A stretch of DNA of 13,790 nt from Candidatus Heimdallarchaeota archaeon (GTDB taxonomy: Archaea; Asgardarchaeota; Heimdallarchaeia; Hodarchaeales; Hodarchaeaceae), in assembly GCA_019057635.1 (NCBI GenBank), contig DXJL01000161.1, forward strand, positions 1 through 13,790. The letters run 5' to 3'. Made by a program: the position numbers and the translations under genes. Positions 3,258 through 13,617 of the stretch are shown one piece after another; position 1 is the stretch's first letter; each line of letters begins with the position of its first letter. Below the pieces are notes generated by a model that worked only from the letters and a program-made list of their open reading frames with translations, had not been told where the DNA came from and ran no database searches.

Positions 3258-4253
3258 ATGTCAGAAGAAAAATATCGGTTTGATTTAAGTGATGGATTTG
3301 GAAAAGAGGATATCTTTGCCATATTCGGCGCAATTTGGCGTTTTTTTGCGTTTTTTTTGAAATTAATCTTTTATCCTTATGTATGGATTTTTAGAATGTT
3401 TGGACGGTCAATTCGTTTTGTTCGGACTAAAAAATCCCCAGAAAAGGCTCTTGATCCCGATGAACGTAGTTTTATTGAGAGTGTTCCAGGATTTTTTGTT
3501 TTAACTGGCTTTTTTGGAGGTATATTGTTCGCAGCTGTTGTTTGGTTGTCTGACCAAACAGGTTTGAGTGACTTTCTGGATGATATTAATCTTACATCTA
3601 TAATAGAGATGTTTGGACACTTCTTTGGATTTATTCTAGAGATCATCTTATGGATAATAGGCATTGATAAGAAGAATGCTGCTGGTGAGGTCATTCTAGA
3701 TCGATTTGGATTACTTGATCTTATTTTTGATATATTCTATGAAATGATCTTACTTAACATCGTTGGTTTCGTAGCTCAAGATGCGATTATGACGTTCATC
3801 GGGATTGGCGTTGTTGGTGTTATTCTAGCAGTAGTGTGGATCGTAATTAGCGAAACAGGAATAGTTGGTGGTATAATTGGTTTTATTGCGAAAATTCTTA
3901 ATTTTATCATAACAGTTCCCACTAACTTTTGGGAAAGAGCAAATAAAGTATATATTAAATTCAATAACATAATGGCCTCAATTGTGATTGGCCAAGAAAG
4001 ACTTGATGAAAGAAATATCGGTTTTCATCGAAAGATCCTCCTTTTAACATTAGGATTAGGAATCTATACGTTTATTGCAGGCATTGTAGTAGGTGTTTCT
4101 AACCCCCAAGATCTAATTAATCCTATTGGATACATCTTTGTCGTTATTCTAGTGCTTGGAATCGGTGTCGGTATAATCGAAATGTTTCTAATCGTTAGAA
4201 TCTTGGATATCGTGTCTCGCAAAAAATACGCTCCAGGAAAATCAGCTGAATAA
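3258..4253 (+). CDS. Uncharacterised polytopic membrane protein (about 4-6 TM or amphipathic helices), 331 aa
   Basis: Long ORF with GAGGT SD at 3246-3250. Hydrophobic stretches at aa ~79-97, 121-136, 177-197, 260-280 and 290-313; basic C-terminal tail. No family recognised. Confidence 0.85.
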   Translation: MSEEKYRFDLSDGFGKEDIFAIFGAIWRFFAFFLKLIFYPYVWIFRMFGRSIRFVRTKKSPEKALDPDERSFIESVPGFFVLTGFFGGILFAAVVWLSDQTGLSDFLDDINLTSIIEMFGHFFGFILEIILWIIGIDKKNAAGEVILDRFGLLDLIFDIFYEMILLNIVGFVAQDAIMTFIGIGVVGVILAVVWIVISETGIVGGIIGFIAKILNFIITVPTNFWERANKVYIKFNNIMASIVIGQERLDERNIGFHRKILLLTLGLGIYTFIAGIVVGVSNPQDLINPIGYIFVVILVLGIGVGIIEMFLIVRILDIVSRKKYAPGKSAE

Positions 4254-4882: not shown

Positions 4883-4938
4883 CTTAGTTTAAAATTGATA
4901 CCAGTTCTGATAAATCAATATGAAATTGTTTGGTGTCG

Positions 4939-7548
4939 ATGGTGAAACAGAATTTTGTTACAGACATTGAGTTTGTTCTGTTAGATGCTGATTATTCTGT
5001 TTCTAATGATCAAAGATCAGCCAATATTCATTTGTGGGGAAAATCTGGAAATAAAAGGGTGGAAGTCATAGTAAAAGGATTTTCCCCCTACTTTTATGTT
5101 GAAACCTCAGAGGAAAACGTTCAAGAAATCATTAGTGAAGAGGAGGGGCTATTACAATCATGGATTATTACCACACAAATATGTCACAAACAGACATATT
5201 TTGGGGCAAAAAAAAAGATTCTAACCAAGATCATTGGTCGACGTCCATATCAGGTTCCCAAGGTTCGTTCAGTTTTCGAACGTAAAGGGTTCAAGGTCTT
5301 AGAAGCAGATATTCCTTTTACAAAACGATTTTTGATTGATCAGAAATTAAGAGCTTTACATATGCTCTCTGTAACTGGAAAAATCACTAATGAAACCTCT
5401 TCTGAAATTGTGATGGAGACAGGATATCAAAATGTGAACCTATCTCCCTCTCAAAATATTGATTATCTGCCATTAGTTCTCGCATTTGATATCGAAGTAA
5501 ATGAACAAGGGGAATCTTTTCAAGAATTATTCAACGATAAAGTGCGCAGAATTACGGCTATTTCGTATGCTTGGGGAAAACTAGGAGTAGCCAAACCTGA
5601 AGTAAGTGCACTCATTCTGGATGCCGATAATGATGCTGCTGAAAAGAGATTATTGCACGATTTCATTGTTAATTTAAGGACCATAGCTCCAGATATTTTT
5701 GTTTCCTTTAATGGTACTTATTTCGACATTCCTTATCTTAAAGCGCGAATGACACGGTATAGTTTATCATTAGGATCACTTGCACTATTCGAAAATCGAC
5801 AAACTGATATTATTCGAACTAGTGTTCCAACTGATGGATATCGTTTGAAAGGAAGGGCAGTTGTCGATCTATTACCCAAAACATGGCATATTCATCCTCT
5901 TTCAGGTCAAAAGAATTTAGACACAATTGCCAGTATGTTGTTGGGAGAGACCAAAATCAAGTCAGACAAAAGCCTTGGAGAATTATGGAGGCATAGCATT
6001 AAAGGGTCGCAATCGGATGAAGATCTATTCTACCAATATTCAATCACTGATTCAATCCTCACCTTTCGGTTAGCTTCTGAGTTAGGTGTAAATACGACTG
6101 TTGAGTTATGTAAACTGGCTGGTTACCTCTTACCTGAAGGCTTACTCTCCACTAGTCGTAATATTGGAGAATTTGAATTAATGCGTATTTTACATGAGAG
6201 AGACATCCTTGTTCCTTCTAAACCAACAAAAACTGAGATATCAAAGCGGAACGCATTAAAAGAGAAATATCCTCATCTCGGGGGTTGGGTTATAGACCCA
6301 GAAGTAGATGAAGCATTATTTGTAGCCATTCTTGACTTTCGATCGTTGTATCCAAACATAGTAAGACAGCATAATATATCTGGAGAAACGTTAATTTCCC
6401 ACTCTGAGTCTAAAAAACCTGAAGATCGTTTTCTGAGACATCCAAGAGGTGCATTCGCTGACCTTATGGATCGAATACTGGTTGAGAGATATAATTCTAT
6501 TAGTCTTTTAAATTCTCTTAAAAAGGAAGGCCCCTCTCCTGAACAACAGAGAAATGTGCATCTACTTGAAAAACAGCAACGCTCTTTAAAACTGATGGCT
6601 AACTCACTATGTGGTGCGGCGAACTACCCTCGTGGACGTTTCTATCATCATCTCTTATCAAATAGCATCACAGGGATCGCTCGGGAGTTATTAGGAGAAA
6701 GATTGCAGGATTGGACAAAGCAATTTTCAAAGAATCATGATTATGATGTAGAAGTTCGATATGGTGATACAGATTCGATTTTTTGTGAGTTTATTAGTCC
6801 TAACTTGCGCCCCTCTGATTTTCTTCCTTCAATATCTGAAGAGAAACGAAATAAAAGCATTAAATTACTTGAAAGTTATATCCATGAATATCAACATTAT
6901 CTCACGACTAATCTTCCTGATCTCTTGGAATTAAAACTTGAAGATATTGCCTTTAGAATCATTCTAAAAAAAGGACGGAAGAAAGCCTATGCCTATCTCT
7001 CCCTAATTTCTCAAGAGGTAATCATTCGAGGTTTCGAAGCTGTTCGTTCTGACTGGTCCCCTTTAGCGAAGCAAACTCAACGGGCACTCCTTGAAAGATT
7101 GTTAATGGATTTTTCTGAAAATCGATTACAGAATGCTCGAAAAATAGTTATTCAAACTTGTCGATTTATCTTGAAATCTTCCATAGATGACTTACTCACC
7201 GAATTAAGTATCAGAGGACCAGTAAAACGTGCGCCTACGAAGTATAAAACTCGAACACCTGCAGTAGGTGCGTTTCTCAATTACTGCAAAGATCAAAACT
7301 TAGATCCTGAGGTAGAATGGAAACAGTGGGATGGTTTCCCTTATATTATAGCAAAGAGTGCACTTAGTCAACCTCAATTTAAGCGTGCATATCATCCTGA
7401 CGTTTTTCGGACTGGTACAAAAGAAATTGATCGTACTCACTACATTAAAGAAATACTTGGGGCTAGTAATCGGTTTGGGATTTCACTCAATGAGAATGAA
7501 GCTCTAAGCGGCCGTTTTATAATCCCATTAACTGAATTTTTTCATTAA
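4939..7548 (+). CDS. polB: Family B DNA polymerase, archaeal PolB3-like
   Basis: ExoI FDIE, ExoII FNGTYFDIPYL, ExoIII YSITD; motif A LDFRSLYPNI, motif B KLMANSLCG, motif C YGDTDS; KKAY and RGFEAVRSDWS. N-terminal uracil-pocket motifs LLDADY, PYFY, QVPKVR, EADIPF. ATG 4939 (preceded by GGTG) preferred over TTG 4930. Confidence 0.95.
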   Translation: MVKQNFVTDIEFVLLDADYSVSNDQRSANIHLWGKSGNKRVEVIVKGFSPYFYVETSEENVQEIISEEEGLLQSWIITTQICHKQTYFGAKKKILTKIIGRRPYQVPKVRSVFERKGFKVLEADIPFTKRFLIDQKLRALHMLSVTGKITNETSSEIVMETGYQNVNLSPSQNIDYLPLVLAFDIEVNEQGESFQELFNDKVRRITAISYAWGKLGVAKPEVSALILDADNDAAEKRLLHDFIVNLRTIAPDIFVSFNGTYFDIPYLKARMTRYSLSLGSLALFENRQTDIIRTSVPTDGYRLKGRAVVDLLPKTWHIHPLSGQKNLDTIASMLLGETKIKSDKSLGELWRHSIKGSQSDEDLFYQYSITDSILTFRLASELGVNTTVELCKLAGYLLPEGLLSTSRNIGEFELMRILHERDILVPSKPTKTEISKRNALKEKYPHLGGWVIDPEVDEALFVAILDFRSLYPNIVRQHNISGETLISHSESKKPEDRFLRHPRGAFADLMDRILVERYNSISLLNSLKKEGPSPEQQRNVHLLEKQQRSLKLMANSLCGAANYPRGRFYHHLLSNSITGIARELLGERLQDWTKQFSKNHDYDVEVRYGDTDSIFCEFISPNLRPSDFLPSISEEKRNKSIKLLESYIHEYQHYLTTNLPDLLELKLEDIAFRIILKKGRKKAYAYLSLISQEVIIRGFEAVRSDWSPLAKQTQRALLERLLMDFSENRLQNARKIVIQTCRFILKSSIDDLLTELSIRGPVKRAPTKYKTRTPAVGAFLNYCKDQNLDPEVEWKQWDGFPYIIAKSALSQPQFKRAYHPDVFRTGTKEIDRTHYIKEILGASNRFGISLNENEALSGRFIIPLTEFFH

Positions 7549-7695
7549 AAAGAAAAATATGATCAGTGTAGGTTGTATTCAATTTTTTGCAACCATAAAT
7601 GGATAAAATCAGTGAAAGAAAGCAACCTGGTACTAGTTCGAAATACTAGAACAGCCTGATTTTGTGTGTTCTAATGCTTGGTATCTAATAAGACT

Positions 7696-7712
7696 CGAAA
7701 CTCCATTTATAT
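7696..7712 (+). promoter_or_regulatory. Putative BRE/TATA of the A2M gene
   Basis: CGAAA-CTCCA-TTTATAT about 40 nt upstream of the proposed start. It lies inside the ORF-track N-terminal extension, which supports a later start codon. Confidence 0.45.
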
Positions 7713-7752
7713 CAGAAAAAAAAGGATCCATCTTTCTTTAAAAGTGATGAAA

Positions 7753-10700
7753 ATGATTAAACACAAAGTTATTAGCTTAACACTCTTATTAGTTTTATTA
7801 ATTGGAATAGTACAGGTTACATCGGCAGATTTAGATTCAAATCAAGATACTAAATCGGTCAATGATCTGAATAATTTTGAATATGCAGTACCTGATCTTA
7901 AACCGGAAATTCAAGCCTTAGAACAACCTGAACCGTCTGTTTTACCGGTTTTTAACCCTAGTCCTCTAAATTTCAATAATATGACTCCAGAAGTGACATC
8001 AAAGACTGTTCAAGATGATGATGAGCGCTTAATCATACAAATAGACCTTGAGAAAGAAATCACTCAACCTGGTCAACCTCTAAAGTATGTAATTCAAGCT
8101 TCAAGGGGAATGAATCCAGCTCCCGGGGAATGGATAACAATAGAGATAATCAAAGGAGAATACTGGGGGTGGTATCGTTATTATTATTATGATAGTGTAG
8201 ATTACGATAATCGGGTTATTGAAAGCATAACTGTTCCCACAGATGCAGATGGTCAATATGAAGGAGAGTTTCAATCATCTGACCGTGGGCGGTATTCAAT
8301 AATAATTCGTTCGAAGGAGAATTACTATTACAAATCTCGTTCGTTTAACATCGCTGAAATAGGCATTTTTTGGAGAGTTTCCCGAGAATTTGCTAAAGGA
8401 CAGCCCCATTATTCCGTTGCCTATGTTTTAAATACAACAGACTTTTCTCCTATTACAGGAGCCGCTGTAACACTTACTGGTGAGCTATACACATATGATT
8501 ATCAAACAGATAAATATTCACTATACTCAGAAGAGTTATTTGCTGGAATCTCAGATGTTCAGGGAGTAACTGAGATTGTTTTTACTCCACCATCCAATTT
8601 CAGTGAGAACTATCACTTTTTAGCGAATCTCTCAGTTTCCTTTAATGGTGAAACAACCTACGTTCTACGCGATATTTATAGAGGTGGATACTACTGGACT
8701 TCAGATGGCTATCAGGAATTCAGTCCCTATGAGTTTATTGTCACGACTGATAAACCCATTTATAATCCAGGCGAAACTGTGCAAGCTCGTATCCTTTTAT
8801 GGCATAATGATTATTTAAAAGCGACAAAGGAGCCTATTGCAACTTCATTTACTTTGAAACTGCTTACTCCATCCCAACATACATTGTTTCAAAAAACTCT
8901 GAAGTCGAATTCGTTTGGTATTGCTACATACTCTTTCGAACTCGATTCTGAAAGCGAATTGGGAGCTTACAGTATTGTAACTCAGAAAGATGAAGTTATA
9001 ACTACAACAGACATCCGTGTCGATAAATATGAGAAACCTGCTTACCGAGTCGAAATTGAATTGGATAAGGAATATGTTGCTCCAGGTCAAAAGGTTTCTG
9101 GGACGTTAAGTGCGATATACTACTTTGGTAAACCTGTTGTTAAAGGACAGGTAGAGCTCCTTATTGGCGATTTAACAACTCTTTCTGGAATTACTGATGA
9201 AGATGGATTATGGACGTTTTCTTATAAATTACCGAGTTCCCTAGAGGAAAGTGGCTTATATGCATTATCATTAAATGCAACAGTAACTGATACTGTAGAT
9301 CGTGAAGTATCTGTTTCTACATCAGTACAAATTACTGAAAATGTGTATGTCTGGGCCTGGGTAAATCCCTGGTTCCCCAAAGCAGATCAGAACGTGACAC
9401 TATATTTTGGTGCATACCAGTATTCATACGGATTTTATTATTGGAGAAGTTTTCAACCGCTACCAGAGGCTGATGTGACCATCAAGTTATACGGGATGCT
9501 ATCGACATCAATCACTGTTCATGTCGCCACCTATCAATCACAAACCGATGCAGATGGCTATGGACGGTTTGAATTTAATATTCCCCAAGAAGTATTAAGT
9601 TTAACAACTAGGTTCAAAGGTGTGGTAGAATTAGATTCGGGTGATGGACGCAACGGAATGTCGACGTTCTACTTTTCCGTGGATCTTACAAGAACAGATG
9701 CGAAGTTAGATAAAGATACATACTCTTCTGGCGATACAGTCAATATTGATATTAGTATTCACAATATTCTTACATTTACTGCTATGTCTGGAAGTGTACG
9801 AGTTCGCATTTTTGATACCGATTATGAGCTGATAGGTGAGAAAACAAGTGATGTCTCAAACTCTGGAAAGAAATTCTCTTTTCAGCTCTCATCTTTTGCT
9901 CCAAATGGCAAGTATCTTGTTCATATTTACGTAAGTAAGACTTTTACGTACGAATGGGGTTCGTATAATTACTATAGATATGACACAACGGTTTCATTCA
10001 CGGTCGGTCCCTCTCAAAAGTTTTCTATGAGTTTGGATAAACCAAGCTATACCTTGAGTGATACTATGACTATAACAGGACAGGTCGAAGGGGAGACTAA
10101 TGCTCCTGTAATGGTTCAATTTGTGAAAAAAGGAATTCTAACAACACAATATGTCCCACAGAATAATGCAGATTCATTCAGTCTGACGATTGCTGATATA
10201 ACTCCTCTTGCACCGAAAGTATGGATTTATGGATTTGCAATTTTGTCTACTGGATTAATCCAAGAAGTACGTTTGTATGTGGAAATCGATTCAACCCTTA
10301 TTGTGGAAATCAACTCCGATAAGGATGTTTATACACCAGGTGAAGAGGCGCAAATAGACATTCAAGTTTACGATGCTAATAAAAATCCTGTATCAACTGT
10401 GCTGGCAATTTCTTTCATTGACAGTTCAGTATTCGGAGTTGAGCCAGATCCTGAAACTGAAACTGAACATTTTAAGGAACAAGAATTTTGGCCTTCAGTC
10501 TGGACAGTATCTTCATGGAAAAGTCGACAGCTAAACTGGTGGTTCTGGTGGTATGATGATTTCTATGGATTAGGTTATAGTCCTGGTTATTGGAGAGGTG
10601 GCCACGAGATAAATGTGTTCGCCATGGAAGATACCGCGGCTCCTGGTGAGCAAGGGATGAAATCTGCAGACGAAGAGGCTCCTGATGCCGATATGGGGCA

Positions 10701-13617
10701 GAAAATCAGAGATAATTTGCCTGAGAATGCCTATTGGACCCCATTTATTGTTGTTGAAGATGGATCAATGTCCATAACTTTAACACTCCCTGATACTATT
10801 GGTGAATGGACAGTGAGAGTTGTAGCTACCTCATCCACTTCTGGAATTGGTGTATTGGAAAAATATACATTCACGACCTTTATACCATTCTTTGTTGACA
10901 TTGTGAAGGACCCATTTGTCCTTCAAGATGACATATTCATAATTAAAGGTGTCGTGTACAATTATCTAGGCAAATTAACTGATATTGATGTCTCTATAGA
11001 TCCTGCAGCTGGAATAACTGTCTTAGGTGAAGCATCACAAAGAATTCGATTACCTGGCGACTTTTTAGGTTCAATTTCTTGGGCCTGTTTGGCTGAAGAC
11101 GCCAATTTTGTAAATGTAACTATTTTTGCCACCACAGAGCTGGCGAATGGAACTCGTTATTCTGATGCTATAAGAAAAGCAGTTGAAATCATTCCAAATG
11201 GCGTGGAATTGGAATTCAAGGCCAGCAGCTTTGTTTCTCAGGACCCTCAATTTGAATATTACCAGTACTCCGAAGCTGTTAAAAAAATAGAATTTCTCGA
11301 ATTATCGCTAGGACTAGGAGCAACGGCAATCAGCTCATGGGAGCGATTAGTGGGTTATCCTTATGGATGTACAGAACAAACAATATCTCGAGTTGTGCCT
11401 GATGCGCTAATATTAGATTATCTCAATCAAACGGGTCAATTAACAAATGAAACTGCAGATTTATTAACTGATATGCTCGTTACTGGGTTATCTCGGTTGT
11501 ATAGTCAACAACATCCTGATGGAGGCTGGGGCTGGTGGTCAAGTGATTCCTCACGAGTTTATATGACTACTCTTGTCCTTTACGGGTTGAGTGCTGTTCG
11601 AGATGTAGGGATCTACGTCGATCCCGCCGTAGTGAAAGAGGCTCTGCAGTCCATCCTAACCAAACAAAACTATGATGGAAGCTGGACTGTTGACTCGTGG
11701 CGAAATATTGATGGTTTTTCCTTCACAGCGTTCGCTCTTCGGTCACTTGTTAGATGGTCTTCTGAATTAGTAGATAATGATCCGATAAATGATGCCATTA
11801 GCTATATTTCCGATGCATGGAGTGATTCTGCTCACCAATCATCTTATTTAGCTGCTCTATATCTGGATGCAGTCATGGATTCTCCATTTGGCTCTCCTGC
11901 GTTTGAATCTTCATTAATATCATATTTAGTGAGTGAGGTTCAGTTTTCTGGAGACGGTAATTATTGGAAATATTCGACAACTCCTGGATATTGGAGGGCG
12001 TTAGGTGGACAAGTGGAAATAACTGGGTTAGCATTGAAAGCTATCGTTAAAACTGATCCTGCCTCCCATATGCCAATCATTCGCGGTGCTATTCAATGGA
12101 TGTTACAGAGACAATCTCGTTATGGATGGGGAAATACAGCTGATACATCAGCTGCCATTTCAAGTTTGATTACCATTAGTAAAGAGGGTTTCAGTTCAGA
12201 TGATGATGCAAATGTAAAGATATACTTAAATGATGAAGAAATAGGTGATTACGATCTGTCTATAAACGGACAGTCAGTAATTTATCTGGATCTCAAATCC
12301 AAAATCCAACCTGGCGAGAACAACTTCACATTCAGTAAAATTGGGACGGGGAATGTCAGTTATTACTTCTTTAGCCAACAGACTCTTAGGTCGCTACCTG
12401 ATATTCTAATACCATCTGAGGTCTCTTCTGCTCCCAGTCAGGAAATCAATGTTCCCATTCGTCTTACACCTTTGTCATCCGAGGTTTTCGCTGCGAATAT
12501 CACTATCAAACCCGTACAAGGAGAATTACTTCCAGTGATCAATCTTCCTCAAACTATCCAATTGTTGACCCAAGACACGATCATAAATTTCAAATATGAA
12601 GTACCAGCCACTCCAGGGGTTTATTCTATTCCAGGATTCGAAATTGTCTATCTACTCTCAAATAGTGAACAATCATCATTTTCCCCAGGAATTATCAGTC
12701 GACAATATGGACCAATAGATCTCGTTGTGCTCAGCTCAACCGAAGGAATGCTTCCTGTGCTATCATCAACACCCGTACCAGCTCCTCTGCCTAAAGTTGA
12801 CTTGAGTCTTCTTTCGAAATCGAGTGTCTCAGGGTTAACATTAGATCGAGAGTTTTCAAATGAGAAATATATTCAACCTGGAGATCTGATCCTTGTCACT
12901 CTAAAAGTAACAAATGATAATGACTCTATGAATTTCTTAATGTTAGAAGAATCTATACCTGCAGGTTTCTCTGTTGATCCAAGCACTATTCAGCATTCAC
13001 AGCAAATGTACCAGATTACAAGTAGAGGAATTACATTTTTCTTCTCCCAATTACCAATGGGAAAAACTGAGGTAAGCTACGGGTTAATTGCTTCAAATAT
13101 ACGTCAATCTTTAGTAATTCCAGCCAAGTTGTCAAGTATGTATGACGATTGGATGGTGAAAAGTGCGCCTGCAGTCTTGGGTGAAGCACGAGTACCAATT
13201 GATCCACAAACAGGTGAAATTGTCAAAGATTTAAGCTATCCTTCTCTCCTTAAGCTAAAGCTTTCTGAAGTACAAGATACTTCATCTCCTTATCTGAATA
13301 TCGAAGTGTCAGCGGTGGATAATTGGGGTGTTGCATCCGTAATAGTATATATCAAGCAATCCTCATGGTATTCATTCGATTGTTTCGAGGGAGGTAACGG
13401 GTGGAATGCTAAAGCTCGAGGATTAACAACTGGGAATGCTCGTGTATTTGTTGAAATTATGGATTACGCAGGAAATGTCTTTGTAACAAGTGAAAATGTT
13501 CAAATGCTGGATCTGGAGGTAATATTTATACCATTCATCCCCATACTCTCTTTATTATTATTTGCTATTGTGACTGGAATGGGGATTAGTGTATATGTTC
13601 GCAAACGTGGTATATAG
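7753..13617 (+). CDS. Alpha-2-macroglobulin / thioester-containing protein (TEP), secreted and C-terminally membrane-anchored, ~1954 aa
   Basis: Signal peptide MIKHKVISLTLLLVLLIGIVQVTSA. MG-domain motif TDKPIYNPGETV; post-bait motifs IRDNLPENAYW and LPDTIGEW; thioester PYGCTEQT (CTEQ at 11368-11379); TED repeats QHPDGGWGWW, QNYDGSW, GWGNTADT; C-terminal MG domain (GDLILVTLKV..LEESIPAGF..PAKLSSMY); TM helix followed by RKRGI. Start at 7753 (or 7747) based on the AAGTGA SD and the signal peptide. Confidence 0.93.
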   Translation: MIKHKVISLTLLLVLLIGIVQVTSADLDSNQDTKSVNDLNNFEYAVPDLKPEIQALEQPEPSVLPVFNPSPLNFNNMTPEVTSKTVQDDDERLIIQIDLEKEITQPGQPLKYVIQASRGMNPAPGEWITIEIIKGEYWGWYRYYYYDSVDYDNRVIESITVPTDADGQYEGEFQSSDRGRYSIIIRSKENYYYKSRSFNIAEIGIFWRVSREFAKGQPHYSVAYVLNTTDFSPITGAAVTLTGELYTYDYQTDKYSLYSEELFAGISDVQGVTEIVFTPPSNFSENYHFLANLSVSFNGETTYVLRDIYRGGYYWTSDGYQEFSPYEFIVTTDKPIYNPGETVQARILLWHNDYLKATKEPIATSFTLKLLTPSQHTLFQKTLKSNSFGIATYSFELDSESELGAYSIVTQKDEVITTTDIRVDKYEKPAYRVEIELDKEYVAPGQKVSGTLSAIYYFGKPVVKGQVELLIGDLTTLSGITDEDGLWTFSYKLPSSLEESGLYALSLNATVTDTVDREVSVSTSVQITENVYVWAWVNPWFPKADQNVTLYFGAYQYSYGFYYWRSFQPLPEADVTIKLYGMLSTSITVHVATYQSQTDADGYGRFEFNIPQEVLSLTTRFKGVVELDSGDGRNGMSTFYFSVDLTRTDAKLDKDTYSSGDTVNIDISIHNILTFTAMSGSVRVRIFDTDYELIGEKTSDVSNSGKKFSFQLSSFAPNGKYLVHIYVSKTFTYEWGSYNYYRYDTTVSFTVGPSQKFSMSLDKPSYTLSDTMTITGQVEGETNAPVMVQFVKKGILTTQYVPQNNADSFSLTIADITPLAPKVWIYGFAILSTGLIQEVRLYVEIDSTLIVEINSDKDVYTPGEEAQIDIQVYDANKNPVSTVLAISFIDSSVFGVEPDPETETEHFKEQEFWPSVWTVSSWKSRQLNWWFWWYDDFYGLGYSPGYWRGGHEINVFAMEDTAAPGEQGMKSADEEAPDADMGQKIRDNLPENAYWTPFIVVEDGSMSITLTLPDTIGEWTVRVVATSSTSGIGVLEKYTFTTFIPFFVDIVKDPFVLQDDIFIIKGVVYNYLGKLTDIDVSIDPAAGITVLGEASQRIRLPGDFLGSISWACLAEDANFVNVTIFATTELANGTRYSDAIRKAVEIIPNGVELEFKASSFVSQDPQFEYYQYSEAVKKIEFLELSLGLGATAISSWERLVGYPYGCTEQTISRVVPDALILDYLNQTGQLTNETADLLTDMLVTGLSRLYSQQHPDGGWGWWSSDSSRVYMTTLVLYGLSAVRDVGIYVDPAVVKEALQSILTKQNYDGSWTVDSWRNIDGFSFTAFALRSLVRWSSELVDNDPINDAISYISDAWSDSAHQSSYLAALYLDAVMDSPFGSPAFESSLISYLVSEVQFSGDGNYWKYSTTPGYWRALGGQVEITGLALKAIVKTDPASHMPIIRGAIQWMLQRQSRYGWGNTADTSAAISSLITISKEGFSSDDDANVKIYLNDEEIGDYDLSINGQSVIYLDLKSKIQPGENNFTFSKIGTGNVSYYFFSQQTLRSLPDILIPSEVSSAPSQEINVPIRLTPLSSEVFAANITIKPVQGELLPVINLPQTIQLLTQDTIINFKYEVPATPGVYSIPGFEIVYLLSNSEQSSFSPGIISRQYGPIDLVVLSSTEGMLPVLSSTPVPAPLPKVDLSLLSKSSVSGLTLDREFSNEKYIQPGDLILVTLKVTNDNDSMNFLMLEESIPAGFSVDPSTIQHSQQMYQITSRGITFFFSQLPMGKTEVSYGLIASNIRQSLVIPAKLSSMYDDWMVKSAPAVLGEARVPIDPQTGEIVKDLSYPSLLKLKLSEVQDTSSPYLNIEVSAVDNWGVASVIVYIKQSSWYSFDCFEGGNGWNAKARGLTTGNARVFVEIMDYAGNVFVTSENVQMLDLEVIFIPFIPILSLLLFAIVTGMGISVYVRKRGI

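Follow-up and report, generated by a model that had tools for sequence, protein, structure and literature searches.

The 13,790-nucleotide (nt) window analyzed here, which is the entire contig DXJL01000161.1 of a 3.19-Mb, 91.6%-complete genome of a “Candidatus Heimdallarchaeota” archaeon (assembly GCA_019057635.1), ends with a gene for a thioester protein of the α2-macroglobulin (A2M)/thioester-containing protein (TEP) superfamily, present in this genome as a single copy. A preliminary description of the locus had presented its product as a secreted, C-terminally anchored thioester protein of an Asgard archaeon, and the analysis reported here agrees: the product is most likely a type I membrane protein that uses a single C-terminal helix as its anchor. 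The family to which it belongs is a clade within the A2M superfamily that is seen only in Asgard archaea. The features of the gene and its product, including the macroglobulin (MG) domains and the thioester domain (TED), are as follows.

7706..7713, + strand: TATA-like TTTATATC, a candidate archaeal promoter element 34 to 41 nt before ATG 7747 (read from the sequence)
7747..13617, + strand: whole A2M gene, 1956 codons plus stop, with an alternative start at ATG 7753 (list of open reading frames [ORFs], translation, Pfam)
7747..7827, + strand: predicted signal peptide, residues 1 to 27, Cys-free, with a basic n-region (MKMIKHK), a hydrophobic core, and the cleavage site TSA/D (hydropathy, −3/−1 rule)
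7828..8019, + strand: variable disordered N terminus of the mature protein, residues 28 to 91 (predicted local distance difference test score, or pLDDT, below 50; genus-level identity of 0.17 to 0.27)
8029..10371, + strand: about seven MG-type β-sandwich domains, residues ~95 to 875 (AlphaFold2 model of the N-part, Pfam, Foldseek)
10486..10557, + strand: conserved Trp-rich element FWPSVWTVSSWKSRQLNWWFWWYD, residues 914 to 937 (family alignment)
10558..10701, + strand: candidate bait, hypervariable and disordered, residues 938 to 985 (conservation, length variation, pLDDT below 50)
10729..10995, + strand: A2M (MG7) domain, residues 995 to 1083 (PF00207, 56.3 bits; modeled β-sandwich)
11335..12168, + strand: TED, an α/α toroid inserted in a CUB-like β domain, residues 1197 to 1474 (PF07678, 92.2 bits; modeled helices at residues 1198 to 1479)
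11365..11379, + strand: thioester motif G-C-T-E-Q, residues 1207 to 1211, with Cys1208 and Gln1211 (read from the sequence)
12442..12729, + strand: MG8-like β-sandwich after the TED and CUB, residues ~1566 to 1661 (AlphaFold2 model of the C-part)
12739..12825, + strand: Pro/Ser-rich disordered linker, residues 1665 to 1693 (pLDDT below 50)
12868..13146, + strand: bMG10-type domain, residues 1708 to 1800 (PF17973, 36.0 bits versus the 26.2 cutoff)
13243..13509, + strand: predicted extra Ig-like β-sandwich beside the membrane, residues 1833 to 1921 (modeled strands; weak Big_13 match, E value of 0.049, below the cutoff)
13513..13599, + strand: predicted C-terminal transmembrane helix, residues 1923 to 1951, opening with I-P-F-I-P-I (hydropathy of up to 2.72; modeled helix)
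13600..13617, + strand: short basic tail RKRGI on the predicted cytoplasmic side, and the stop codon (sequence)

The ORF spans positions 7678 to 13617. Residues are numbered here from ATG 7747, which gives a protein of 1,956 residues. The start codon is likely to be either this ATG (MKMIKHK...) or ATG 7753, because relatives start at one or the other; database protein P0002, a 100% match to the window protein, starts at 7753. A start at TTG 7678 is disfavored because the TATA-like element lies downstream of this codon and upstream of both ATGs. Positions 7631 to 7649, between the A2M gene and the DNA polymerase gene that precedes it, carry two copies of TACTAG flanking a TTCGAA palindrome, either a regulator site or a product of chance.

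A hydropathy scan found only two hydrophobic segments in the A2M protein, at residues 1 to 31 and 1918 to 1952. The first has the makeup of a cleavable signal peptide and, as had been proposed, it lacks a lipobox Cys: the protein contains three cysteines in all (Cys1114, Cys1208, and Cys1879) and, because the first of these is residue 1114, no lipobox Cys is possible. The second corresponds to the proposed transmembrane helix with its basic tail, which is seen in the hydropathy profile, in the AlphaFold2 model, and in the terminal RKRGI. Both ends are family features. All 46 full-length family members have the C-terminal hydrophobic helix, followed in 45 of them by at least two Lys or Arg residues within 12 residues. 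A hydrophobic segment at the N terminus is present in 43, and the gene calls of the other three look truncated. The same description had counted about 14 N-x-S/T sequons and taken the surface protein to be glycosylated. The count (14) stands, and glycosylation is not supported by it, since composition-preserving shuffles yield 12.8 ± 3.2 sequons, with at least 14 in 820 of 2,000 shuffles, i.e., there is no enrichment. The retention of 13 of the 14 sequons in the three closest relatives is expected at 80 to 94% identity, and N1123 alone is kept in 21 of 24 sequences. The Loki-type proteins of the family (L020 to L027) have 15 to 34 sequons each, and the Hodarchaeales-type proteins (L011 to L017, L028, L029, L031, and the close relatives of the window protein) have 9 to 21.

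The MG/bait/TED/MG layout and the intact GCTEQ motif seen in the preliminary description were recovered in the Pfam matches. Those above the curated cutoffs include MG2 (100.1 bits; cutoff, 32.8), A2M (56.3 bits; cutoff, 21), A2M_BRD (29.7 bits; cutoff, 22.7), and bMG10 (PF17973; 36.0 to 40.4 bits; cutoff, 26.2), and TED_complement scored 92.2 bits. The Pfam search gave no match to A2M_recep (PF07677) in the window protein at an E value of ≤0.01. The N-part contents include MG2 at residues 330 to 424 and the bait-region domain at residues 761 to 896. AlphaFold2 was run on two halves of the protein, residues 28 to 995 and 985 to 1956, each with a 25-row family alignment, and about 11 β-sandwich domains were seen across the two models. 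The C-part model (mean pLDDT of 82.5; predicted template modeling score of 0.68) places in order MG7, the CUB domain split by the TED, the MG8-like domain, the linker, bMG10, the Ig-like domain, and a terminal helix at residues 1930 to 1955; for the Ig-like region, two homologs have precomputed PF19077 matches. In the N-part model (mean pLDDT of 74.6), the first 64 residues are disordered, as are residues 891 to 912 and 926 to 995. Foldseek searches with the C-half retrieved native C5, C3, frog A2M, CD109, and A2ML1 at TMq values of 0.49 to 0.54 and C3b at only ~0.25. Since this half superposes better on the native than on the activated (C3b) forms, it was modeled in the closed, native-like state, with the thioester buried. 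For the N-half, the best E values were those of the bacterial A2Ms ECAM (PDB 5a42; 2e-28) and SaA2M (4u48), with low TM-scores.

The segment that links the bait-region domain to MG7, where the modeled disorder (pLDDT below 50, residues 926 to 995) falls, is also the most variable part of the protein. The least conserved 30-residue blocks start at residues 928 and 958 (together residues 928 to 987), with values of 0.71 and 0.60 versus ~0.87 elsewhere in the comparison with the three relatives at 80 to 94% identity and of 0.39 and 0.10 at the genus level (~50% identity). In the family alignment, the Trp-rich FWPSVWTVSSWK..Q..WWFWWYD (residues 914 to 937) is followed by 45 to 60 residues that vary in both length and sequence and then by the conserved IRDNLPENAYW, which aligns by eye with RKFFPETWIW, the sequence that comes after the bait in rodent PZP. 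Residues 938 to 985 are a candidate bait, whose position, disorder, and variability together fit those of an A2M bait. The Trp-rich element, with its WWFWW core directly before the bait, is present in both subclades of the family, with YWW as a looser form.

The GCxEQ motif is found in all 51 family members. In C3, C4B, and TEP1, a His residue downstream of the thioester enables attack on hydroxyl groups. In a 99-row alignment, the corresponding column holds His in 17 of the 46 rows for receptor-type bacterial A2Ms and in 3 of the 21 for animal A2Ms, and all 21 rows of the long Asgard family have a gap there. A direct reaction with amines is favored because this column has no His in the Asgard proteins, so that A2M-like aminolysis appears more likely than hydroxyl attack.

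The family was delineated in a word-indexed search that covered 5.8 billion proteins and returned 153 matches. The 51 that constitute the family (P0002 to P0052) align over nearly their full length at 27 to 100% identity, and all source names among them are Asgard labels; the closest copies are from Heimdallarchaeota B3_Heim (94% identity) and Hodarchaeota (76 to 84%). These labels and the actin gene of the window fit an Asgard (Hodarchaeales-type) host. The next matches are proteins of 1,370 to 2,100 residues that cover ~29% of the query at ~25% identity, and the six that have source names are all bacterial. Of 400 Asgard genomes, 50 yielded matches at E values of ≤1e-10, 39 of the long form (E values of ≤1e-80) and 11 weaker and partial. 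The long form is found in 20 of the 22 genomes of the window genus (the window's own included), in one more family of the class to which this genus belongs, in 8 of the 14 genomes of one further family (f19, closed genomes included), in 9 of the 135 genomes of another (f20, all in a single genus), and in one additional genome; it was found in none of the 31 genomes of a sister family. With matches in 17 of 85 genera, the distribution across Asgard archaea is patchy. The family tree separates a Hodarchaeales-type clade from a Loki-type clade. The window copy, with its short RKRGI tail and I-P-x-x-P-I helix start, belongs to the Hodarchaeales-type subclade, and Loki-type copies have cytoplasmic tails of 34 to 46 residues and no P-x-x-P. 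The f20 copies are nested within those of f19 (Shimodaira-Hasegawa-like approximate likelihood ratio test [SH-aLRT] support of 97), an arrangement (L020, L021, L026, and L027 inside L022 to L025 and L034) that may reflect transfer from one Asgard lineage to another or a problem of taxonomy. A second, shorter type of Asgard A2M, of 1,540 to 1,670 residues, occurs in a few other Asgard genomes (L035 to L041), with GCxEQ in 6 of the 7 proteins. A search of sequencing runs produced 23 DNA matches in 13 studies, labeled as marine-sediment and cold-seep metagenomes, with no RNA among the matches listed. Full-text literature searches, whose scope did not extend to the locus list of Makarova et al. 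2021, found no paper on the Asgard A2M family.

Kinship with other A2Ms was examined in unrooted trees of the MG7-CUB-TED region (~547 columns). The rows comprised the long Asgard proteins, six of the shorter Asgard A2Ms, the non-Asgard matches, and representatives 35 to 65% identical to a fragment of rodent PZP, so that the animal sampling consists of A2M-like sequences only. A 70% ceiling on identity between rows reduced the set from 142 to 99, and it was then thinned by fixed steps to 48 and 30, with two long-branch rows left out of the 30-row tree. The “bacterial” rows carry a source name in 6 of 68 cases, two group labels were checked through PDB matches, and several rows have deviant amino acid composition. 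FastTree resolved the 99 rows into five clean groups. In the 48-row IQ-TREE analysis (LG+G4), the long Asgard proteins are monophyletic (100/100), as are the animal ones (100/100), and a split with support of 100/97 places the animal and receptor-type bacterial A2Ms on one side and the long Asgard, short Asgard, and ECAM-like proteins on the other. The same split has SH-aLRT support of 98 in the 30-row tree (LG+C20+F+G4 with posterior mean site frequencies). The six shorter Asgard A2Ms form a group of their own near the ECAM-like proteins (94/85). An approximately unbiased (AU) test rejected a clade of long Asgard and animal proteins (log-likelihood difference of 17.7; P value of 0.005); that hypothesis came from the preliminary description, and the FastTree result was known before the test. 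Domain content follows the same lines: in the precomputed Pfam lists, A2M_recep is present in 53 of the 55 nearest bacterial matches and in PZP and in none of the 51 long Asgard proteins, 36 of which have bMG10 (counted by eye). A receptor-type bacterial protein has far better E values to CD109 (1.7e-64) and A2M (6.5e-60) than the Asgard protein has, and for one of the ECAM-like proteins the E values to SaA2M and ECAM are ~4e-34.

These results bear on the evolutionary meaning given to the protein in the preliminary description, which had called its topology eukaryote-like and the protein relevant to the origin of eukaryotic TEPs. A link to that origin is not supported, as the long Asgard proteins lack A2M_recep and the animal A2Ms group with the receptor-type bacterial proteins instead of the Asgard clade. 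The C-terminal anchoring shared with CD109 and Mcr is an analogy, best read as convergence because the Asgard clade is not kin to the animal A2Ms to the exclusion of bacteria. The same description had pointed to nesting in a bacterial clade together with a patchy distribution as signs of recent transfer: the Asgard proteins are not nested within any sampled bacterial clade, and their patchiness is evident.

On balance, we lean toward reading the protein, by homology with characterized A2Ms, as a surface-tethered snap-trap for foreign proteases. Garcia-Ferrer and colleagues reportedly described bait cleavage, thioester capture, and a conformational trap for A2M in 2015. After removal of the signal peptide, ~1,900 residues would lie outside the cell, held on the membrane by the C-terminal helix and the short basic tail; this ectodomain would consist of the MG string, an exposed bait loop, and the CUB and TED that hide the Cys1208-Gln1211 thioester. 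By homology, a foreign endopeptidase would cut the disordered, fast-evolving bait (residues ~938 to 985), and the resulting rearrangement would expose the thioester, which would react with a lysine of that enzyme. Through this covalent bond the protease would stay attached to the archaeal surface under steric blockade, and the membrane and surface proteins would be protected. The trap would be monomeric, as in ECAM and SaA2M, and would act alone, with no partner gene conserved family-wide. That A2Ms work by cleavage of a bait, capture through the thioester, and conformational trapping is established (abstract of PMC3328433).

Several considerations weigh against this reading. This archaeal group has, to our knowledge, no outer membrane or periplasm, so that the rationale offered for ECAM, guarding of the periplasm, is not directly transferable. 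The bait is assigned solely from position, disorder, and variability, and we know of no counterpart of the Trp-rich element at residues 914 to 937 in characterized A2Ms. The His column lies in a loop with insertions and deletions, which makes that result alignment dependent, and the signal peptide cleavage site and the topology were judged from the hydropathy scan and the −3/−1 rule, a rule of thumb.

The genes around the A2M gene enter into the weighing of other explanations. Directly upstream in the window is a family B DNA polymerase (PolB) gene (positions 4930 to 7548, + strand), and this adjacency holds in all seven loci examined from the genus, even where A2M identity falls to 47%, and not in Loki-type loci. 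The neighbors in the window and the scanned loci include PolB, a γ-carbonic-anhydrase-like protein, actin, a histidine kinase, inositol-1-phosphate synthase, and an MFS transporter; the convergent 7TM-PAS histidine kinase and the inositol-1-phosphate synthase are encoded downstream of the A2M gene in close relatives. The actin homolog (positions 1328 to 2479, − strand), a lokiactin-type protein of 383 amino acids, is encoded 5 kb upstream of the A2M gene; it matches Pfam Actin at an E value of 1e-133 over profile positions 5 to 407 of 410, and L003, the locus of the closest relative, has the same gene order. An ORF of 331 amino acids (positions 3258 to 4253, + strand) has no Pfam or NCBIfam match and is conserved near the A2M and PolB genes in six loci of the genus. 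In Loki-type loci, a protein of 154 to 202 residues is encoded directly upstream on the same strand in eight of nine cases, with one intervening gene in the ninth (e.g., L020:9292-9795, L023:13733-14338, and L025:6589-7143, with six more such loci); it combines an ArsR/TrmB-like winged helix-turn-helix (wHTH) domain with two C-terminal hydrophobic helices. No homolog of it was found among the window ORFs (best E value of 0.053); the window genome encodes one at 37 to 47% identity on another contig (C106:12850-13353, − strand), where the first residues of its neighbors suggest no link. An all-against-all comparison of neighbors in 18 loci found no partner gene common to both subclades.

A covalent adhesin or tagging protein is a rather unlikely alternative, in which the activated thioester would fix the archaeal surface to a partner cell, virus particle, or substrate, in the manner of complement and opsonins or of Gram-positive thioester adhesins, without inhibiting proteases. 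Membrane tethering and the conserved thioester suit such a role, the Loki-type cytoplasmic tail of 34 to 46 residues could signal, and the membrane-bound wHTH gene precedes the A2M gene in eight of nine Loki-type loci; both immunity or conflict and adhesion roles are raised for other archaeal A2Ms in the accessible text of Makarova et al. 2021 (PMC8416519). However, the C3/TEP1-type His column is gapped in all 21 Asgard rows, the proteins have the full bait and MG-ring architecture of a trap rather than a free TED adhesin, and no convertase-like protease is conserved alongside the A2M gene. Improbable, too, is a covalent-capture sensor, a surface module for immunity or recognition beyond protease inhibition, that would detect, tag, and signal: the bait would be cut by a protease of an intruder or partner, the intruder tagged, and a report sent across the membrane through the Loki-type cytoplasmic tail and perhaps the upstream membrane-bound wHTH regulator. 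This would be a complement-like system, old and arisen independently of the animal one.

We give equally little credence to a structural envelope protein, a large part of the surface coat whose thioester would form cross-links to neighboring envelope proteins with no anti-protease role. The protein is indeed very large, single copy, and encoded among housekeeping genes (PolB, actin, and the γ-carbonic-anhydrase-like protein) in a synteny kept within the genus, but its patchy occurrence (39 of 400 genomes, 0 of 31 in the sister family, and 17 of 85 genera) is unexpected for an essential envelope component, and the hypervariable bait-like loop is a mark of conflict. It is still less probable that the C-terminal helix is a sorting signal removed by an archaeosortase-like enzyme, leaving the protein lipid linked or released. 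The tail is tripartite in look (motif, helix, and basic cluster), 24 of the 51 family members have [ILVF][IV]PxxP[IVLM] at the start of the helix, at least eight ORFs of the window genome have PGF-type tails with a Thr/Ser-rich linker, PGF, helix, and basic cluster (e.g., on contigs C117, C161, C179, C212, C128, C136, C81, and C55), and there is a weak match to archaeosortase A (TIGR04125; 20.7 bits, below the cutoff; C82:73619-73939). However, the A2M tail has neither the PGF motif nor a Thr-rich linker, its last 45 or 155 residues match no NCBIfam sorting-signal model at E values of ≤10, Pfam Exosortase_EpsH (PF09721) has no match in the 91.6%-complete genome, and the Loki-type tails are long and devoid of P-x-x-P. 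The helix is read as a membrane anchor because the helix itself is the conserved part.

That eukaryotic TEPs go back directly to this protein, by vertical descent from an Asgard ancestor, is scarcely credible: the host is a Hodarchaeales-type archaeon and the best solved-structure sequence matches are animal A2Ms (3e-38, residues 985 to 1535), A2ML1, TEP1 (2e-28), CD109 (1e-24), C4, and C3, far above ECAM and SaA2M (~130 TED residues only, ~3e-7 to 3e-6), but the animal/receptor-type grouping (100/97; 98), the AU test, the closer receptor-type match to CD109, the lack of A2M_recep in the 51 proteins, and the patchiness all oppose it, and among eukaryotes we know of TEPs only in animals.

Should the protease-trap mechanism hold, Asgard archaea would display a covalent protease trap on a naked membrane, a surface defense in organisms that live in tight contact with bacteria and have a very poorly characterized cell surface. 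An ortholog is present in the database entry for Promethearchaeum syntrophicum and in other closed Asgard genomes, and tests in culture are therefore feasible. On present evidence, the family sheds no light on how animal complement and A2M proteins arose.

Among known proteins, those annotated as “MG2 domain-containing proteins” in Hodarchaeales, Heimdallarchaeota, and Promethearchaeum syntrophicum belong to the same family: they are 1,940 to 2,082 residues long, are 27 to 94% identical to the window protein, and share its signal peptide, GCxEQ, C-terminal helix, and domain order. In the accessible text of Makarova et al. 2021 (PMC8416519), TED/CxEQ proteins are reported from 24 archaeal genomes, mainly of Halobacteria and Methanomicrobia; like the window protein, they are archaeal and secreted and have a TED with an intact CxEQ, and that text makes no mention of a C-terminal membrane anchor. 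ECAM/YfhM and SaA2M (PDB 5a42, 4ziq, and 4u48) resemble the window protein in being monomer sized and membrane tethered, in their long N-terminal MG string, and in having a bait, a thioester-bearing CUB/TED, and a bMG10-type domain at the C terminus, and they fall on the same side of the main tree split as the Asgard clade. Characterized bacterial A2Ms such as E. coli YfhM are N-terminally lipid anchored and often encoded with PBP1C. The anchors are thus at opposite ends, an N-terminal lipobox Cys in ECAM and SaA2M and a predicted C-terminal helix in the window protein, which is also 300 residues longer and has the extra Ig-like domain. The remark in the preliminary description that the locus differs from the ECAM/YfhM type in having no pbpC-like neighbor is confirmed for the window and the scanned loci of relatives, a genome-wide pbpC search not being part of that scan.

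The best non-Asgard matches are the receptor-domain-type bacterial A2Ms (e.g., of Hydrogenedentes, Tepidisphaerales, Pirellulales, and Blastocatellia), together with animal A2M/PZP. The bacterial proteins are ~25% identical to the window protein over MG7-CUB-TED (E values of 1e-75 to 1e-50); these bacterial and animal proteins carry A2M_recep, group apart from the Asgard clade, and in many cases have His at the catalytic position. Among animal TEPs, CD109 is glycosylphosphatidylinositol (GPI) anchored and Mcr is transmembrane, both being tethered at the C terminus. Native CD109 (8s3o) is one of the best structural matches to the C-half of the window protein (TMq of 0.54; root mean square deviation of 6.8), with a sequence match of only 1e-24. 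The A2M fold thus appears to be tethered in three separate ways, by an N-terminal lipid in bacteria, by GPI or a helix in animals, and by a C-terminal helix in Asgard archaea.

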